The position numbers and the translations under genes are program-made. The notes beneath the pieces were generated by a model. The model worked only from the letters and a program-made list of their open reading frames with translations, had not been told where the DNA came from and made no database searches. DNA of 64,000 bases from Escherichia coli. Its GTDB lineage: Bacteria > Pseudomonadota > Gammaproteobacteria > Enterobacterales > Enterobacteriaceae. The stretch's first letter is position 1; every line of letters begins with the position of its first letter. This document shows positions 1,406 through 31,042 of the stretch, piece after piece. The stretch is from the NCBI RefSeq assembly GCF_001677475.2, contig NZ_CP015229.1, one strand, 5' to 3'.

Positions 1406-2746
1406 TTAACGCACCATGCACGGACGCTTGTTATCGAACGTCCAGCCAGGAATCAGATACTGCATTCCCATTGCATCGTCACGCGCGCCAAGCCCGTGTT
1501 TCTGATACAGCTCGTGGGCTTTCATCACCTGATCCATATCGATTTCTACGCCCAATCCTGGTTTTTGCGGCACCTGTACCAGCCCGCCTTTGATCTCAAA
1601 CGGTTCTTTGGTCAGACGCTGATTGCCTTCCTGCCAGATCCAGTGCGTATCAATAGCAGTAATTTTACCCGGTGCAGCAGCGGCTACATGGGTAAACATC
1701 GCCAGGGAAATATCGAAGTGGTTGTTAGAGTGTGAACCCCAGGTCAGGCCAAATTCATGGCACATTTGCGCCACACGTACCGAACCTTGCATCGTCCAGA
1801 AATGCGGATCCGCCAGCGGGATATCAACGGATTGTAACGAGAGCGTATGGCCCATCTGCCGCCAGTCGGTGGCGATCATATTGGTTGCGGTCGGCAGGCC
1901 AGTCGCGCGACGGAACTCAGCCATCACTTCACGCCCGGAGAAACCTTGCTCCGCACCACACGGATCTTCTGCATAAGCCAGCGAACCTTTCAGGTATTTA
2001 CCAATTTTAATCGCTTCGTTCAGCGACCAGGCACCGTTAGGATCGAGCGTAATACGCGCCTGTGGGAAGCGTTGCGCCAGTGCCACAATAGATTCTGCTT
2101 CTTCTTCCCCGGCCAGTACACCGCCCTTCAGTTTGAAATCGTTGAAGCCATATTTTTCATATGCTGCTTCCGCCAGGCGCACCACCGCATCCGGCGTCAT
2201 CGCTTCTTCGTGACGCAGGCGATACCAGTCACATTTATCATCCGGCTGGCTTTGATACGGCAGCGGTGTGGCTTTGCGATTACCGACGAAGAACAGATAA
2301 CCGAGCATTTCGACTTCGCTACGCTGTTGACCATCGCCCAGCAGCGATGCCACGTTAACCCCCAGATGCTGCCCCAGCAGATCCAGCATTGCCGCTTCTA
2401 TCCCGGTAACTACATGAATAGTGGTACGCAAATCAAATGTCTGCAAACCGCGCCCGCCGGCATCACGATCGGCAAATGTATTACGCACCAGCGTCAGAAC
2501 GTTTTTGTATTCACCTAGCGTTTTACCCACCACCAGCGGAATCGCATCTTCCAGCGTTTTACGGATTTTCTCGCCGCCGGGAATTTCCCCTACGCCGGTG
2601 TGACCGGAATTATCTTTGATAATCACAATATTACGCGTGAAGAACGGTGCGTGTGCACCACTCAGATTCATCAGCATACTGTCATGACCCGCCACCGGGA
2701 TGACCTGCATTTCAGTAACAACAGGCGTCGTAAATTGAGAACTCAT
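1406..2746 (-). CDS. gudD: D-glucarate dehydratase (enolase superfamily), 446 aa
   Basis: ORF 1406..2770; protein from [25 protein letters not shown] matches E. coli GudD; start set at internal ATG giving 446 aa. Confidence 0.93.
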
Positions 2747-2766
2747 GTTTATGTCCTTATTCAGAA

Positions 2767-4107
2767 TCAATGACGGCCGAAAACGGGACGTTTACGGTCA
2801 AAGGTCCAGCCGGGGATCAGGTACTGCATCGGACCTGCGTCGTTACGCGCACCGCCAAGCAGACGTTTATAGGCTTCATGCGCCTTTTGTACCTGCTCCC
2901 AGTCCAGTTCCACGCCCAGACCGGGCGCATCAGGAACGGCAATTTTTCCGTTTTTAATCTCCAGCGGATTTTTGGTCAGGCGACAATCTCCCTCCTGCCA
3001 AATCCAGTGGGTATCGATAGCGGTAGGATTACCCGGTGCCGCCGCACCCACATGGGTAAACATCGCCAGAGAGATATCAAAGTGGTTATTGGAATGGCAG
3101 CCCCAGGTCAGCCCCCAGTCGTCGCAAAGCTGCGCTACGCGGACTGCACCGGAAAGCGTCCAGAAGTGCGGGTCGGCAAGTGGAATATCTACCGCATTGA
3201 GCATCACCGCATGGCCCATTTCGCGCCAGTTGGTGGCGATCATGTTAGTCGCGACGGGCAAGCCGGTCGCCCGTCGAAACTCCGCCATCACTTCACGTCC
3301 GGAGAAACCCTGTTCTGCGCCACATGGATCTTCGGCATAGGTGAGAACATCATTCAGCCCTTTGCACAGATAAATGGCTTCATCAAGCAGCCATGCACCG
3401 TTGGGATCAACGGTAATTCGCGCATCCGGGAAGAGTTTCTTCAATGCACGAACAGTGTCGATTTCTTGCTCGCCAGGTAACACTCCGCCCTTAAGTTTGA
3501 AATCTTTAAAGCCATAGCGATCCTGTGAGGCTTCCGCCAGACGTACAACGGCTTCGCTGTTCATCGCTTTCTGATGCCGCAATTGATACCACTCATGGTT
3601 GCCCGGCGTATTTTCCAGATAAGGAAGATCGGTTTTGGTCCGATCACCGATATAAAACAGATAACCGAGGACGGTAATAGCATCGCGTTGCTTGCCTGGC
3701 CCTAACAGTTCGCAGACCGGAACATTCAGCGCCTTACCTAGCAGGTCAAGCAAGGCGGCTTCCAGCGCCGCCACGGCATTAACGCGCAATTCAAAAGTCC
3801 AGGCACCTTTGCCGAAGGTATCAAAATCGGCTGCCTGATTACCTTTATGCACCTGCTGGACCACTTTATTCAGGCGCGCAACTTCCTGGCCCAGAACCAT
3901 CGGAATAGCATCGACAAGCGTCTGATAAATCACCTCTCCGCCTGGCGCTTCACCAATGCCGGAATGTCCGGCATTATCGGTGAGTACCACGATATTGCGG
4001 GTGAAATATGCGTCATGTGCACCACCAATATTAAGCAACATGCTATCGTGCCCGGCGACCGGAATGACTTTCATATCAGTAATAACAGGACTGGATTGTG
4101 TCGTCAT
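2767..4107 (-). CDS. gudX: Glucarate dehydratase-related protein (GudD paralog), 446 aa
   Basis: ORF 2767..4107; strong similarity to adjacent GudD along whole length (e.g. [38 protein letters not shown] motifs); 4-nt overlap with gudD start. Confidence 0.92.
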
Positions 4108-4108
4108 C

Positions 4109-5461
4109 TTATTGCCCCGCGACAGGTTTCAGCTCGATACGCTTGATATCGCCCACCAGCACCAGGTAGCTCAGTACCGCGATTAAGGCATGAACACCAA
4201 CATAAATCAGCGCCCCATTAAAGGAGCCAGTCGTGCCAACGATATAACCAATTGCGATTGGCGTGACGATGCCAGAAATGTTACCGAACATGTTGAACAG
4301 GCCACCGGAAAGACCGCTGATCTCTTTTGGCGCGGTATCTGCCATTACTGCCCAACCTAGCGCCCCGATGCCCTTACCGAAGAAGGCCAGCGCCATAAAG
4401 CCGATGATCATCCACTCAACATTGACGTAGTTGCAGAACACCATCACCATCGACAGCAACATGCCCATTACGATCGGTGTTTTACGCGCAATGTTCAGCG
4501 ATCCCGTGCGGCGCATCAGCCAGTCGGAAATAATCCCACCCAGCACACCGCCGATAAAACCGCAAACCGCCGGAACGGAAGCCACAAAGCCCGCTTTCAG
4601 AATCGACATCCCACGCGCCTGCACCAGATAAACCGGAAACCAGGTAATGAAAAAGTAAGTCAGGGCGTTGATACAGTACTGACCGATATAAACGCCGATC
4701 ATCATCCGTGACCCGAGCAGCTGTTTGATCTGCCCCCACTTCACGCTGAACGGCACTTTAACTTTGGTATTTTGCTGATCCATATTGATCAGCGCGCCAC
4801 CCGCGGCGATGTACTCCAACTCTTTCTGATTTACACCCGGATGTTGATTTGGCTCGTGGATGACTTTCAACCAGATAAAGCTGATGACAATGCCCAGACC
4901 GCCCATAAAGAAGAAGACGTGTGACCAGCCCACTTCATGCGTCAGCCAGCCCATAATCGGCGCGAAGATCACCGTTGCGAAGTATTGAGCGGAGTTAAAA
5001 ATCGACACCGCCGTTCCCCTTTCCTGCGCCGGAAACCAGGCCGCAACAATGCGACTGTTGCCGGGGAAAGATGGCGCTTCAGCAAGCCCGACCAGGAAGC
5101 GCAGCGTAAACAGGGCAACGATAATGCCGAATCCACTAAAGATATCGACGAAGCCTTGCAGCAAGGTAAACATCGACCAGATAAAGATCGACCAGAAGTA
5201 GACGCGTTTTGAACCAAAACGATCCAGCAACCAGCCACCTGGGATCTGCCCGATAACATAAGCCCATGAGAAGGCAGAGAACACATAGCCCATTCCCACG
5301 GGATCAAGGCCGATATCTTTGGCCATTTCCGAACCGGCAATAGAAAGCGTAGCGCGGTCGCCGTAGTTGAAGGATGTGACGATAAACAACATCACCACTA
5401 TCCAGTAACGAGCATTCGTGCGTTTTTCCACACTGCTCGCAGCCTGACTTAAAGAACTCAT
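4109..5461 (-). CDS. gudP: MFS transporter for D-glucarate/galactarate, 450 aa
   Basis: ORF 4109..5461; hydrophobic multi-TM protein, MFS signature; position upstream of gudXD. Confidence 0.92.
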
Positions 5462-5785
5462 TGTTGCACTCCTGAAAATTCGCGTTAGCCACGCTCACTC
5501 TGGACTGCGACATCGCCAGGAAATCAGAGGTGACGTAGGGTGTTTTTGCCGTTTTTATAGGTCGTTCGCCGAATACGGCGCGTGTTTATATCTGGCAATA
5601 GCAGTATAAAAAGCGCGCCATAGCGGCTCACCGTGCAACAACACAACATTAATGCGTTCAATGAGGCCCGATTTTGGCATTAGCCCTGGACGGTGGAATC
5701 CACTTCACGGAAATGAAAACAAGAACAAGAAAGGAAGGGTTAAAACGAAGAAATAAAGAAGAGTATGAAATGGATCGCTTGACTC

Positions 5786-5842
5786 CAGGCAAACGCCAGT
5801 AAAAATCCGCGCTATGAAGCAGTTTTTACTGGCATTTGCCTG
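5786..5842. repeat. Long inverted repeat (20-bp arms, 17-nt loop) in gudP/yqcA intergenic region
   Basis: caggcaaacgccagtaaaaa ... tttttactggcatttgcctg; arms complementary with one mismatch. Confidence 0.7.
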
Positions 5843-5894
5843 AAAAGATTCGATTCAGCATCGCTAAAACGGCATTTACCGCTCGCTGAACGTA

Positions 5895-6344
5895 TCAGGA
5901 CAACAGCGTGCCCCAATGTTCGACCCACGGATTTGATTCCGTTTCCGGTTCCGGGTTCTCACTGGCGTCAATCAACAGCATTTCGCCAACCCGCTGAGCG
6001 CTCTGTTCCTGCAACAATGCATCGAACTGTTTGCCGCCATTGCAGAAATTCACATAACTACTGTCGCCGAGCGCAATCACGCCATAACGCAGATTCGGCT
6101 GGAAGCCCAGACTATCTTTGATTCCCTGAAAGAGCGGCACAATGCTATCAGGAAGGTCGCCCTGCCCGGTCGTGGACGTAACCACCAGAACATACTTATC
6201 CTGATAGGGCAGCCAGTCGCTTAATTCAGGATCTTCAAATACCGTTGCTTTGTGGCCCTGCGCGGTCAGAATTGCTTCCGCTTCTTCCGCCACTAACAGC
6301 GAATTTCCGTACATAGTGCCCACAAAAATACCAATTTCCGCCAT
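5895..6344 (-). CDS. yqcA: Flavodoxin-like protein, 149 aa
   Basis: ORF 5895..6344; flavodoxin FMN-binding signature ([20 protein letters not shown]). Confidence 0.9.
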
Positions 6345-6361
6345 ACCGTTTTCTCCCTGGA

Positions 6362-7144
6362 TTAGGAACTTATCTCTCCATCCTGACCCGATGGCGCACT
6401 GAACTCAACCCTTTCATTTTCAGGAAGCAGACCCCGCCAGCCAAATTGTGATAACGCCTGCATCCAGGTGCCGTCCAGGCCCGCGTGAATAGTCAACGGC
6501 TCGCCAGTAAAAGGATGCGTCAATGACAACTGACTGGCATGCAGCATTAACCGCTGAAGGCCAAAATGTTCAGCACCGCTGCGATTCTGGCGTAAATCAC
6601 CATGTTTGCTGTCGCCAATAATCGGGTGGCGCAAATGGGCAAGATGGCGACGGAGCTGGTGCTTGCGTCCGGTTTTCGGCTCCAGTTCCACCAGGCCGTA
6701 GCGCGTGGTCGGATAACGTCCGGTCGCTACCGGCATTTCTACGGTCGCCAGACCGCGATAATGCGTCACTGCTGGCTGTGGGCCTTTATCTTCGCGGGCA
6801 AATTTATCAGCGATTTTGTCCAGTTCTTCCACCAGTGGATAATCCAGAACTGCTTCTTCCATCAACCAGCCGCGCACAATCGCATGGTAACGTTTCTGGA
6901 TTTGGTGCTGTTCAAACTGTTGTGCCAGCAGCCGTCCGGCCTCGCTGGATAATCCCATCAACAACACACCAGAAGTTGGTCGGTCCAGACGATGAGCAGT
7001 AAACACATGCTGGCCTATCTGGTCACGCACGGTTTGCATGACCACTACTTTCTCGTCGCGATCCAGCCAGCTGCGGTGAACCAGCCAGCCGGAGGGTTTA
7101 TTTACCGCAACCAGCCATTCATCCTGATAGAGTATTTCCAGCAT
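6362..7144 (-). CDS. truC: tRNA pseudouridine(65) synthase, 260 aa
   Basis: ORF 6362..7144; RluA-family motif [12 protein letters not shown]. Confidence 0.92.
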
Positions 7145-7473
7145 TAGCTCGCATCATCCGCAAAAAGAGCATCCAGTTTTTCCAGCTCAGCCAGAATAAG
7201 CGCGCGTTGCGGGTGGTCCGTCGCCAGCGCCATTTCATAATAGGGAGCAACGGCAAAAGCGCCCGGTAACGGCTGGTTGTTTTCTAACAAATCGTGCATT
7301 CGCGGGATCAGCACCCACTGCAACCACTCCAGTGGTTCCATGGTGTCCATAAAGAACGGTTGGGTACTATTAAATTGATGCGGCTGGGGTTCATCGTTTC
7401 GCCAGTGCTGATGTTCACGCAGTAACGCTTCAAGCGCCTGCAACTGGAGACGAACGCGGTCATGAGTGGTCAT
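7144..7473 (-). CDS. yqcC: DUF446 family protein, 109 aa
   Basis: ORF 7144..7473; 1-nt overlap with truC start; matches E. coli YqcC size and context. Confidence 0.85.
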   Translation of the reverse strand: MTTHDRVRLQLQALEALLREHQHWRNDEPQPHQFNSTQPFFMDTMEPLEWLQWVLIPRMHDLLENNQPLPGAFAVAPYYEMALATDHPQRALILAELEKLDALFADDAS

Positions 7474-7516
7474 AAAGCAACCTCAATAAGAAAAACTGCC
7501 GCGAAGGATAGCAGGA

Positions 7517-7551
7517 ATAAAAAAAGGGAGCACTGTATTCACAGTGCTCCC
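7517..7551 (-). terminator. Rho-independent terminator of csrB
   Basis: Minus-strand hairpin GGGAGCACUGU..ACAGUGCUCCC followed by UUUUUUUAUU. Confidence 0.85.
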
Positions 7552-7884
7552 GGTTCGTTTCGCAGCATTCCAGCTACTTTTGTTGCTCCCTGCTCATCCT
7601 TGACAACTTTTCCTCTGGCCTTGCGGCCAATCGTTCGTCCTGAACTATTGCTTCCTGCTCACACCACCCCGATGTGATACTTCATCCTGAAGTGTCCCTG
7701 GCCTTCCTGACCCACCGAATCATCCTGACCGGTTCTCATTCTCCATCCTGGAGGTGTCCTTTAACGCGTCCTGCGTCATCCTCTTCGCTTCGTCCAGAAG
7801 CCTTTCCCTGAAACACCATCCTGGTGTGTCCTTCAGAAGTGTCATCATCCTGATGTTCACTTCGTTGTCTGACTCCCTGTCGAC
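7517..7884 (-). ncRNA. csrB: CsrB small RNA (CsrA-sequestering), about 368 nt
   Basis: Minus strand begins GTCGACAGGGAGTCAGACAACGAAG and carries about 20 repeated CAGGA(U/A)G / AGGA motifs (seen as catcctg/tcctg on plus strand); ends with hairpin gggagcactgt-gaat-acagtgctccc plus U7. Confidence 0.9.
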
Positions 7885-26053: not shown

Positions 26054-26259
26054 ACTTCCTGAGCCGGAACGAAAAGTTTTATCGGAATGCGTGTTCTGGT
26101 GAACTTTTGGCTTACGGTTGTGATGTTGTGTTGTTGTGTTTGCAATTGGTCTGCGATTCAGACCATGGTAGCAAAGCTACCTTTTTTCACTTCCTGTACA
26201 TTTACCCTGTCTGTCCATAGTGATTAATGTAGCACCGCCTAATTGCGGTGCTTTTTTTT
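26054..26259 (+). ncRNA. gcvB: GcvB small RNA, about 206 nt
   Basis: ACTTCCTGAGCCGGAACGAAAAGTTTTATCGG 5' end, G/U-rich tgttgtgttgttgtgtttg region, terminal hairpin gcaccgcc-taatt-gcggtgc plus T8. Confidence 0.9.
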
Positions 26260-29253: not shown

Positions 29254-29360
29254 GCCTGATGCGCTACGCTTATCAGGCCTACATAACTCCTGCAATATTT
29301 TGGATTTGCATGAGTTGTAGGCCGGATAAGGCGTTCACGCCGCATCCGGCATGAACCACG
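29254..29360. repeat. BIME: two REP units in opposite orientation
   Basis: gcctgatgcgctacgcttatcaggcctac (29254..29282) and gtaggccggataaggcgttcacgccgcatccggca (29326..29360). Confidence 0.8.
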
Positions 29361-30744: not shown

Positions 30745-30821
<77 letters not shown>

Positions 30822-30854
30822 ATTAAAATTTGATGAAGTAAAGCAGTACGGTGA

Positions 30855-30931
<77 letters not shown>

Positions 30932-30965
30932 ATCAAAATTTGATGAAGTAAAAGCAGTACGGTGA

Positions 30966-31042
<77 letters not shown>

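Follow-up and report, generated by a model that had tools for sequence, protein, structure and literature searches.

The glucarate locus of E. coli raises a question about two neighbouring genes. GudD is a Mg2+-dependent D-glucarate/L-idarate dehydratase of the enolase superfamily, with 5-keto-4-deoxy-D-glucarate as its product, and its gene stands beside gudX, which encodes a paralog; what is the role of GudX? The pair is already known: descriptions of it date back to the late 1990s, crystal structures exist for both proteins, and the two genes are E. coli core genes. Glucarate use matters to Enterobacteriaceae in the inflamed or antibiotic-treated gut, and an answer would therefore be of modest physiological relevance. 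The first-pass annotation of this DNA called the physiological role of gudX poorly defined, and so it is in the literature searched, where we found no paper on GudX function and where a gud/gar pathway study of 2025 leaves gudX unmentioned. In this work, the locus was analyzed in a window of 64,000 nt, which is the whole stretch of DNA studied. We hypothesize that gudX and gudD are the last two genes of a gudP-gudX-gudD operon, and that GudX, an ancient paralog, probably functions as a partner subunit for GudD.

Gene order and annotation

Three co-oriented open reading frames (ORFs) were observed on the minus strand, in the order gudP, gudX, gudD. The features of the locus are as follows, in the direction of transcription:

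5462-5894, minus strand: intergenic region 5' of gudP, presumed from its position alone to contain the promoter of the operon and its regulator sites
4109-5461, minus strand: gudP, MFS glucarate/galactarate/glycerate transporter, 450 aa, first gene of the operon (ORF, RefSeq)
2767-4107, minus strand: gudX, glucarate dehydratase-related protein (GlucDRP), 446 aa, with ATG at 4107 and TGA at 2767-2769 (ORF, RefSeq)
1406-2746, minus strand: gudD, D-glucarate dehydratase (GlucD), 446 aa, with ATG at 2746 and stop codon at 1406-1408 (ORF, RefSeq, TIGR03247, PDB 1EC7)

The same gudP, gudX and gudD are annotated in RefSeq, flanked by barA and yqcA, and their lengths are identical to those of the ORFs found here. 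Position 1406 is the end of the gudD stop codon and position 4107 the first base of the gudX ATG, and the distance of 2702 nt (4107 - 1406 + 1) is equal to 2 x 1341 + 20. The alignment of GudX and GudD spans their whole length (E = 0), with 63% of the positions identical and 78% positive. The paralogs and their coordinates are confirmed because this end-to-end alignment and the RefSeq annotation agree, and the description of gudD and gudX as a head-to-tail tandem of 446-aa enolase-superfamily paralogs was thus correct. No ORF was found between gudP and yqcA in either the ORF list or the RefSeq annotation, and a consensus scan of the minus strand gave no sigma-70-like match in 5462-5894. Plus-strand ORFs within both genes (e.g. 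1847-2518 and 2770-3480) were rejected as antisense frames of the kind that conserved coding sequence usually produces, without support, and their recurrence at homologous positions is due only to gudX and gudD being paralogs. The stretch is approximately 98.5% identical to E. coli chromosomes, and 5,425 of 5,426 complete E. coli genomes contain the locus.

The two proteins are separated by the NCBIfam equivalog model for glucarate dehydratase, TIGR03247, which has a curated cut-off of 828.7 bits for the whole-protein score. GudD reaches 899.3 bits, in agreement with its initial designation as the characterised glucarate dehydratase, and matches PDB 1EC7 from residue 1-446 to residue 1-446 with 1030.6 bits. 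GudX reaches 743.2 bits. RefSeq gives it the generic product name 'enolase C-terminal domain-like protein' because this score falls below the cut-off, and gudD carries the name 'glucarate dehydratase'. GudX matches PDB 4IL0 and chain C of 4GYP (GlucDRP), both with 1024 bits, and its close homologs carry the Pfam entries PF02746 and PF13378. PDB 4GYP contains, in addition to the GlucDRP chain, the GlucD sequence of 1EC7. GudD and GudX were thus crystallised together.

Junctions between the genes

Three further features bear on how the genes are expressed:

2747-2766, minus strand: gudX-gudD intergenic spacer of 20 nt, ttctgaataaggacataaac, in which a Shine-Dalgarno (AAGGA) lies 7 nt 5' of the gudD ATG
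2768-2770, minus strand: in-frame TTG, a spurious gudD start taken by the mechanical longest ORF (454 aa), unannotated in RefSeq
1368-1393, no strand assigned: 10-bp GC-rich terminator-like hairpin, 12 nt past the gudD stop, between the convergent barA and gudD

The minus-strand sequence of the gudX-gudD junction is ...CGT CAT TGA-ttctgaataaggacataaac-ATG AGT TCT... The 4-nt overlap of gudX and gudD given in the first-pass annotation exists only with the 454-aa form of gudD, in which the TG of TTG 2770 is shared with the gudX TGA. The apparent overlap is an ORF-calling artefact. The duplex with the anti-Shine-Dalgarno at the 3' end of 16S rRNA has -5.9 kcal/mol at ATG 2746 compared with -1.7 kcal/mol at TTG 2770, where there is no Shine-Dalgarno, and GlucD was crystallised as a chain of 446 aa, which aligns 1-446 to 1-446 with the GudD of this stretch. 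Furthermore, in 37 other species with the tandem, the spacer was 8-87 nt long (median 20), no overlap was found, and an AGGA-type motif was present in 36 of the 37 spacers. The 8-aa TTG extension is unconserved, because spacer length and frame differ among these species. An apparent overlap of -8 at one locus (L027), produced by automatic start choice, was rejected, as the sequence there is TAA, 10 nt, ATG.

The translational coupling of gudX and gudD had been argued from the overlap, so that the argument fails when the overlap is absent and gudD has its own AAGGA Shine-Dalgarno. Coupling through a 4-nt overlap of the ATGA/TTGA type could be defended by TTG 2770, which shares the gudD frame and overlaps the stop codon of gudX. 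However, such a start yields 454 and not 446 aa, it has the weaker duplex and no Shine-Dalgarno, both RefSeq and the crystallised GlucD begin at the ATG, and a spacer separates the genes in each of the 37 other species. The RNA structure around the gudX-gudD and gudP-gudX junctions was also unremarkable, being no better than shuffles (z = +0.83 each). The junction at which two genes do abut is gudP-gudX instead, and coupling by overlap of gudX and gudD is extremely improbable. A weak coupling of the two genes via re-initiation over 20 nt is possible. Sequestration of the start sites by RNA structure was considered for both junctions and rejected, since the folding was no stronger than in the shuffles.

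The tight junction of the locus is that of gudP with gudX, not that of gudX with gudD. The gudP TAA is 1 nt from the gudX ATG (TAAgATG), and in many Enterobacteriaceae this junction measures -4, -1, +1 or +2 nt. The hairpin at 1368-1393, whose T-run is on the plus (barA) side, is the sole intergenic terminator-like site; the other seven lie within coding sequence, and the number of such sites in the region is not above that in shuffles. No terminator-like site was found in the gudP-gudX or gudX-gudD junction. The hairpin may serve as the gudD terminator. By their orientation, the junctions of 1 and 20 nt and the terminator-like hairpin after gudD, the three genes gudP-gudX-gudD appear operon-like.

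Phylogeny, synteny and selection

A scan of species-representative genomes gave 80 loci. The order gudP-gudX-gudD was observed across many Enterobacterales genera, as well as in Orbaceae and one Pasteurellaceae genome, and a single GlucD only was found in Pseudomonas, Bradyrhizobium, Bacillus and others. In a neighbour-joining tree, the rooting of which on one distant outgroup is approximate, 43 GudX sequences branch as one monophyletic group, outside every canonical GlucD. The E. coli GudD is 72-77% identical to solo GlucDs (including those of Pseudomonas and Bacillus) compared with 63% to its own GudX. A protein of Actinobacillus succinogenes (PDB 3N6H, 3N6J and 3PFR, 'mandelate racemase/muconate lactonizing protein') scores 783 bits to GudX and 625 bits to GudD. 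Because the GudX score exceeds the GudD score, it probably belongs to the GudX clade as a representative from Pasteurellaceae, which fits the Pasteurellaceae locus (L034) of the scan.

By comparing the 41 informative GudX loci, gudD was found immediately downstream of gudX in 37, and nearby on the other strand in one. One locus has a GudX::GudD chimera, and two, which are basal in the clade, have no GlucD within 6 kb. The solo GudX-clade gene of Halomonas eurihalina adjoins kdgD, and that of Paludibacterium yongneupense adjoins gudP and two glycerate kinases. Since both genes adjoin glucarate-pathway genes, their position suggests that GudX-type proteins may act alone as dehydratases. In Pantoea stewartii, a natural chimera joins an N-terminal GudX part to a C-terminal GudD part.

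The dN/dS against 11 other species was 0.018-0.071 for gudX and 0-0.106 for gudD, and the number of invariant columns was 202 for GudX and 213 for GudD. These values point to gudX as an old gene under purifying selection as strong as that on gudD. The view of gudX as a decaying pseudogene was rejected on its dN/dS (approximately 0.02-0.07) and because 5,408 of 5,426 complete E. coli genomes carry it in intact form. The synonymous sites of the two paralogs are saturated, with pS of 0.69 overall and 0.5-1.0 in each 30-codon window. Recent gene conversion between gudX and gudD was ruled out, since this saturation holds even in blocks with 90% amino-acid identity.

Active site and lid loops

In GlucD, the KxK lysines Lys205 and Lys207 and the dyad His339-Asp313 act as acid/base, and Asp235, Glu260 and Asn289 as metal ligands. 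For the comparison, the active site was defined by the GlucD numbering reported by Gulick et al. (2000, 2001), i.e. His32, Thr103, Tyr150, Lys205, Lys207, Asp235, Asn237, Glu260, Asn289, Asp313, His339, Asn341, Asp366, His368 and Arg422, together with neighbouring residues. At these numbers, the GudD sequence has the expected residue types. All 17 of these catalytic or ligand positions are identical in GudX, where K204/K206, D234, E259, N288, D312 and H338 correspond to K205/K207, D235, E260, N289, D313 and H339 of GudD. The 17 positions are invariant in 43 GudX-clade and 78 GlucD proteins, except for one GlucD with Glu in place of Thr103. Because all of them are kept, GudX is no pseudoenzyme by loss of catalytic residues. 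The KxK motif, the D/E/N ligands and the His-Asp dyad are invariant in the 121 family members, which assigns these proteins to the mandelate-racemase-type/GlucD subgroup of the enolase superfamily. In this subgroup, the KxK motif is placed at the end of barrel strand 2, and the His and Asp of the dyad on strands 7 and 6, respectively.

The differences between the two clades lie at other positions. With a clade-fixed position defined as one that is at least 90% fixed within each clade and differs between GudX and GlucD, 13 such differences were found among the 43 GudX-clade and 78 GlucD proteins. In GudD numbering, with the change from GudD to GudX, they are:

L28I and S29G: adjoin His32
R88H and an inserted Gly: N-terminal capping region
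Q102W and D105E: flank Thr103
I110V, H111N and T114A: N-terminal capping region
D294N and S322A: clade-fixed
S338C: adjoins His339
G418P: near Arg422

The N-terminal capping region contains nine of the 13 (28, 29, 88, the inserted Gly, 102, 105, 110, 111 and 114), and in the enolase superfamily the lids formed by this region determine the specificity for the substrate. The GudX of this stretch has 12 of the 13 signature residues, including I27, G28, H87, W103, E106, N110, A113, N293, A321 and C337, and at the thirteenth site it has a private Leu417 in place of Pro. The suggestion that the paralog may have diverged in substrate, to be judged by its active-site residues, received a divided answer: the metal ligands and the general acid/base are identical in GudD and GudX, and the clade-fixed changes of the lid loops remain. 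In Lucifera butyrica, an apparently independent tandem duplication has diverged at the same lid positions.

According to the first-pass annotation, identical active-site residues and kinetics would speak for simple redundancy, with GudX as a back-up isozyme of the same activity as GudD. The identity of catalytic and metal-binding residues was indeed found, and the location of gudX and gudD in one operon also agrees with a back-up copy. Nevertheless, the two proteins share only 63% identity with saturated synonymous divergence, GudD is nearer to the GlucD of Pseudomonas and Bacillus (72-77%) than to its own GudX, and 13 clade-fixed differences separate them. A dN/dS of approximately 0.03, kept across many genera of Enterobacterales, Orbaceae and Pasteurellaceae, would be unexpected for a spare copy. 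Moreover, Hubbard et al. in 1998 reportedly found an identity of about 65% between GlucDRP and GlucD, with GlucDRP being 'significantly impaired' both as a dehydratase and as an epimerase. With the lid changes, the ancient separate clade and the co-crystal with GudD, simple redundancy is very unlikely in spite of the identical active-site residues.

Role of GudX

We hypothesize that GudX would be translated from the common mRNA immediately ahead of gudD, and that gudD would initiate at its own Shine-Dalgarno in the 20-nt spacer and not at an overlapping stop-start. The two proteins would then assemble into a mixed oligomer for glucarate/idarate dehydration, in which the GudX subunit, with its altered lid, would have little activity by itself and would change the properties of the mixed enzyme. 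The lid-loop substitutions of GudX are in loops that shut over the substrate at its distal end. On this view, GudX would not be a redundant isozyme, nor would it serve an unrelated pathway. We infer that the GudD/GudX heteromer is the physiological form and that it acts in this way. No kinetics for the heteromer were found in the literature searched.

The partner-subunit role is consistent with the near-obligatory adjacency of gudD (37 of 41 informative loci) and with the presence of GudD and GudX in one PDB entry, 4GYP. On the other side, a co-crystal is no proof that the heteromer exists in the cell, two solo GudX-clade loci lie beside glucarate-pathway genes, and a full catalytic set fits an independent enzyme equally well. 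In the stricter form of this proposal, GudX would be an obligate partner of GudD, whose lid (W103, E106, N110 and others) alters the specificity, regulation or stability of the mixed dehydratase; this is conceivable but doubtful. If it were true, the placing of a divergent-lid paralog directly 5' of a canonical GlucD would represent a design that recurs, at which the L. butyrica duplication and the P. stewartii chimera hint.

The second possibility is that GudX is an independent enzyme with a diverged substrate, and that it dehydrates or epimerises another acid sugar, e.g. a hexarate stereoisomer imported by GudP, into the same pathway. The complete catalytic set, the clustering of clade-fixed changes in the specificity-determining lid loops, the score below the TIGR03247 cut-off, the solo GudX-clade genes beside kdgD or gudP/garK and the strong purifying selection would all agree with such an enzyme. 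However, in nearly all cases GudX has GudD as its neighbour, for which an autonomous enzyme would have no need, and GudX was co-crystallised with GudD. To our knowledge, the acid-sugar screens of Gerlt and the EFI have reported no efficient alternative substrate for GudX, which also counts against an independent enzyme.

A galactarate phenotype might also be taken as support for an own substrate of GudX, but polarity can account for it. In a Tn-seq study of Dickeya solani, gudP, gudD, gudX and garL were fitness genes on galactarate (PMC10202176). In Dickeya, one co-oriented cluster comprises gudP-gudX-gudD-garL-garR-garK, and garD is separate. Because the genes share this cluster, insertions in gudX are probably polar, and the phenotype was discounted as a sign of GudX acting in galactarate use, in favour of the simpler polarity on garL, garR and garK. 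We consider the independent enzyme rather unlikely, and a partner subunit of GudD remains the preferred role of GudX.

The gudX/gudD pair being known biology, these results have little weight as a discovery. The additions are the corrected junction, the residue-level comparison of the active sites and a few side observations. GudX is set apart by a few fixed lid-loop changes and by its near-obligatory place 5' of gudD, and the question of its role is narrowed to two options, i.e. a partner subunit or a lid-retuned enzyme.

Comparison with known systems

The gudD of this stretch is the E. coli GudD/GlucD (b2787; PDB 1EC7, 1ECQ, 1JCT and 1JDF), and its gudX is the GudX/GlucDRP of E. coli K-12 (b2788, formerly ygcY; PDB 4IL0 and 4GYP chains C/D). 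GudX has the same length (446 aa) and the same gudP/gudD setting as in K-12, and few residues differ. The allele carries N32D, R225L, S246Y and P417L, unlike K-12 and the other Escherichia/Citrobacter sequences compared, and exactly this allele occurs in public E. coli genomes. Two other types of dehydratase, the enolase-superfamily enzyme TalrD/GalrD (L-talarate/galactarate dehydratase) and GarD, also convert hexarates to 5-keto-4-deoxy-glucarate. TalrD/GalrD is only distantly related, with 64 bits on the NF047820 model compared with a cut-off of 500, and GarD belongs to a separate family, TIGR03248; GudX is outside both. With GudD/GlucD, GudX has in common the fold family, the length and the 17 active-site residues, whereas it differs by its identity of 63%, the 13 clade-fixed positions and the TIGR03247 score below the cut-off.

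Probable recombination between the tandem gudX and gudD genes

In Pantoea stewartii subsp. stewartii, gudP is followed by one gene where the gudX–gudD pair is expected (locus L032 of the genome scan, 6001–7335). By its residue matches, this gene is a natural GudX::GudD chimera. The N-terminal part (residues 1 to ~260) matches Pantoea GudX with 70–96% per 40-residue window, and the C-terminal part, from ~261 to the end, matches Pantoea GudD with 74–98% per window. The crossover lies within a conserved block of 27 residues. The lid residues are of the GudX type and the barrel residues of the GudD type. The chimera likely originated by unequal recombination with the loss of one gene-length. GudX–GudD fusions of 583–690 aa were also observed among the predicted proteins (P0001–P0005, P0009, and P0011). 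In P0002 and P0003, the gudX stop is read through into gudD, and internal joins are present in, e.g., P0004 and P0005 (GudX 1–274 with GudD 29–446) and P0009 (GudX 1–229 with GudD 92–446), the last of which was found on 23 contigs. These fusion proteins could either reflect true rearrangements of the two neighboring paralogs or result from errors in sequencing and assembly.

GudX-type and lid-divergent proteins in other bacteria

Two basal GudX-clade genes occur with no canonical glucarate dehydratase (GlucD) within 6 kb, namely in Halomonas eurihalina (L041, 4866–7338) and Paludibacterium yongneupense (L030, 566–7335). One of them lies directly 3′ of kdgD, encoding 5-dehydro-4-deoxyglucarate dehydratase, and the other follows gudP and two glycerate kinase genes. 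Since these solo genes adjoin such partners and have no GlucD nearby, GudX-type proteins are suggested to be able to act as the local hexarate dehydratase.

A tandem duplication of GlucD was observed in Lucifera butyrica, a member of Negativicutes (L057, 4584–7323). Judging from sequence similarity, it seems to be independent of the GudX clade, because each copy resembles canonical GlucD more closely than it does GudX. In the upstream copy, the lid positions that changed in GudX are likewise altered (S29C, Q102H, D105N, H111N, and a gap at 110), and this copy may be the bearer of the only Thr103-to-Glu change found in the solo GlucD set. The lid-divergent upstream paralog may have arisen by parallel evolution.

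The gudX allele and other features of the window

GudX of the window (2767–4107) carries four substitutions (N32D, R225L, S246Y, and P417L) that occur neither in the K-12 protein (4IL0) nor in three further Escherichia sequences or Citrobacter. Both R225 and P417 are well conserved across the family. The amino-acid sequences of GudD and GudP are identical to those of E. coli strain 7/2. Public E. coli genomes include the exact GudX allele (e.g., ANO90593.1, 40 contigs), and no complete RefSeq E. coli genome contained gudX with a DNA identity >98.1%. Constraint on GudX may be slightly relaxed in this lineage.

The following RNA features matched Rfam at gathering level and are ordinary, already known features of E. 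coli.

RNA features of the window (Rfam matches)
7516–7875, minus strand, CsrB sRNA
26054–26259, plus strand, GcvB sRNA
29275–29317, minus strand, ES036 (CssrF) sRNA
30745–31039, plus strand, three tandem tRNAs with identical scores
59463–59747, minus strand, OmrA/OmrB pair

The species representative Escherichia coli strain SCPM-O-B-8794 (L028) differs from the window by a dS of ~0.36–0.42 in gudP, gudX, and gudD, whereas the values for strain 7/2 are far lower (0.04–0.08). L028 is probably a cryptic Escherichia lineage and not E. coli proper.

Comparison of gud/gar gene clustering

In Dickeya oryzae (L025, 2492–11771), the entire pathway forms one cluster adjoining barA, with garD on one strand and gudP–gudX–gudD–garL–garR–garK on the opposite strand. 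On the other hand, E. coli has kept only gudPXD beside barA. This difference suggests an ancestral single gud/gar cluster, from which the gar genes of E. coli were later split off.
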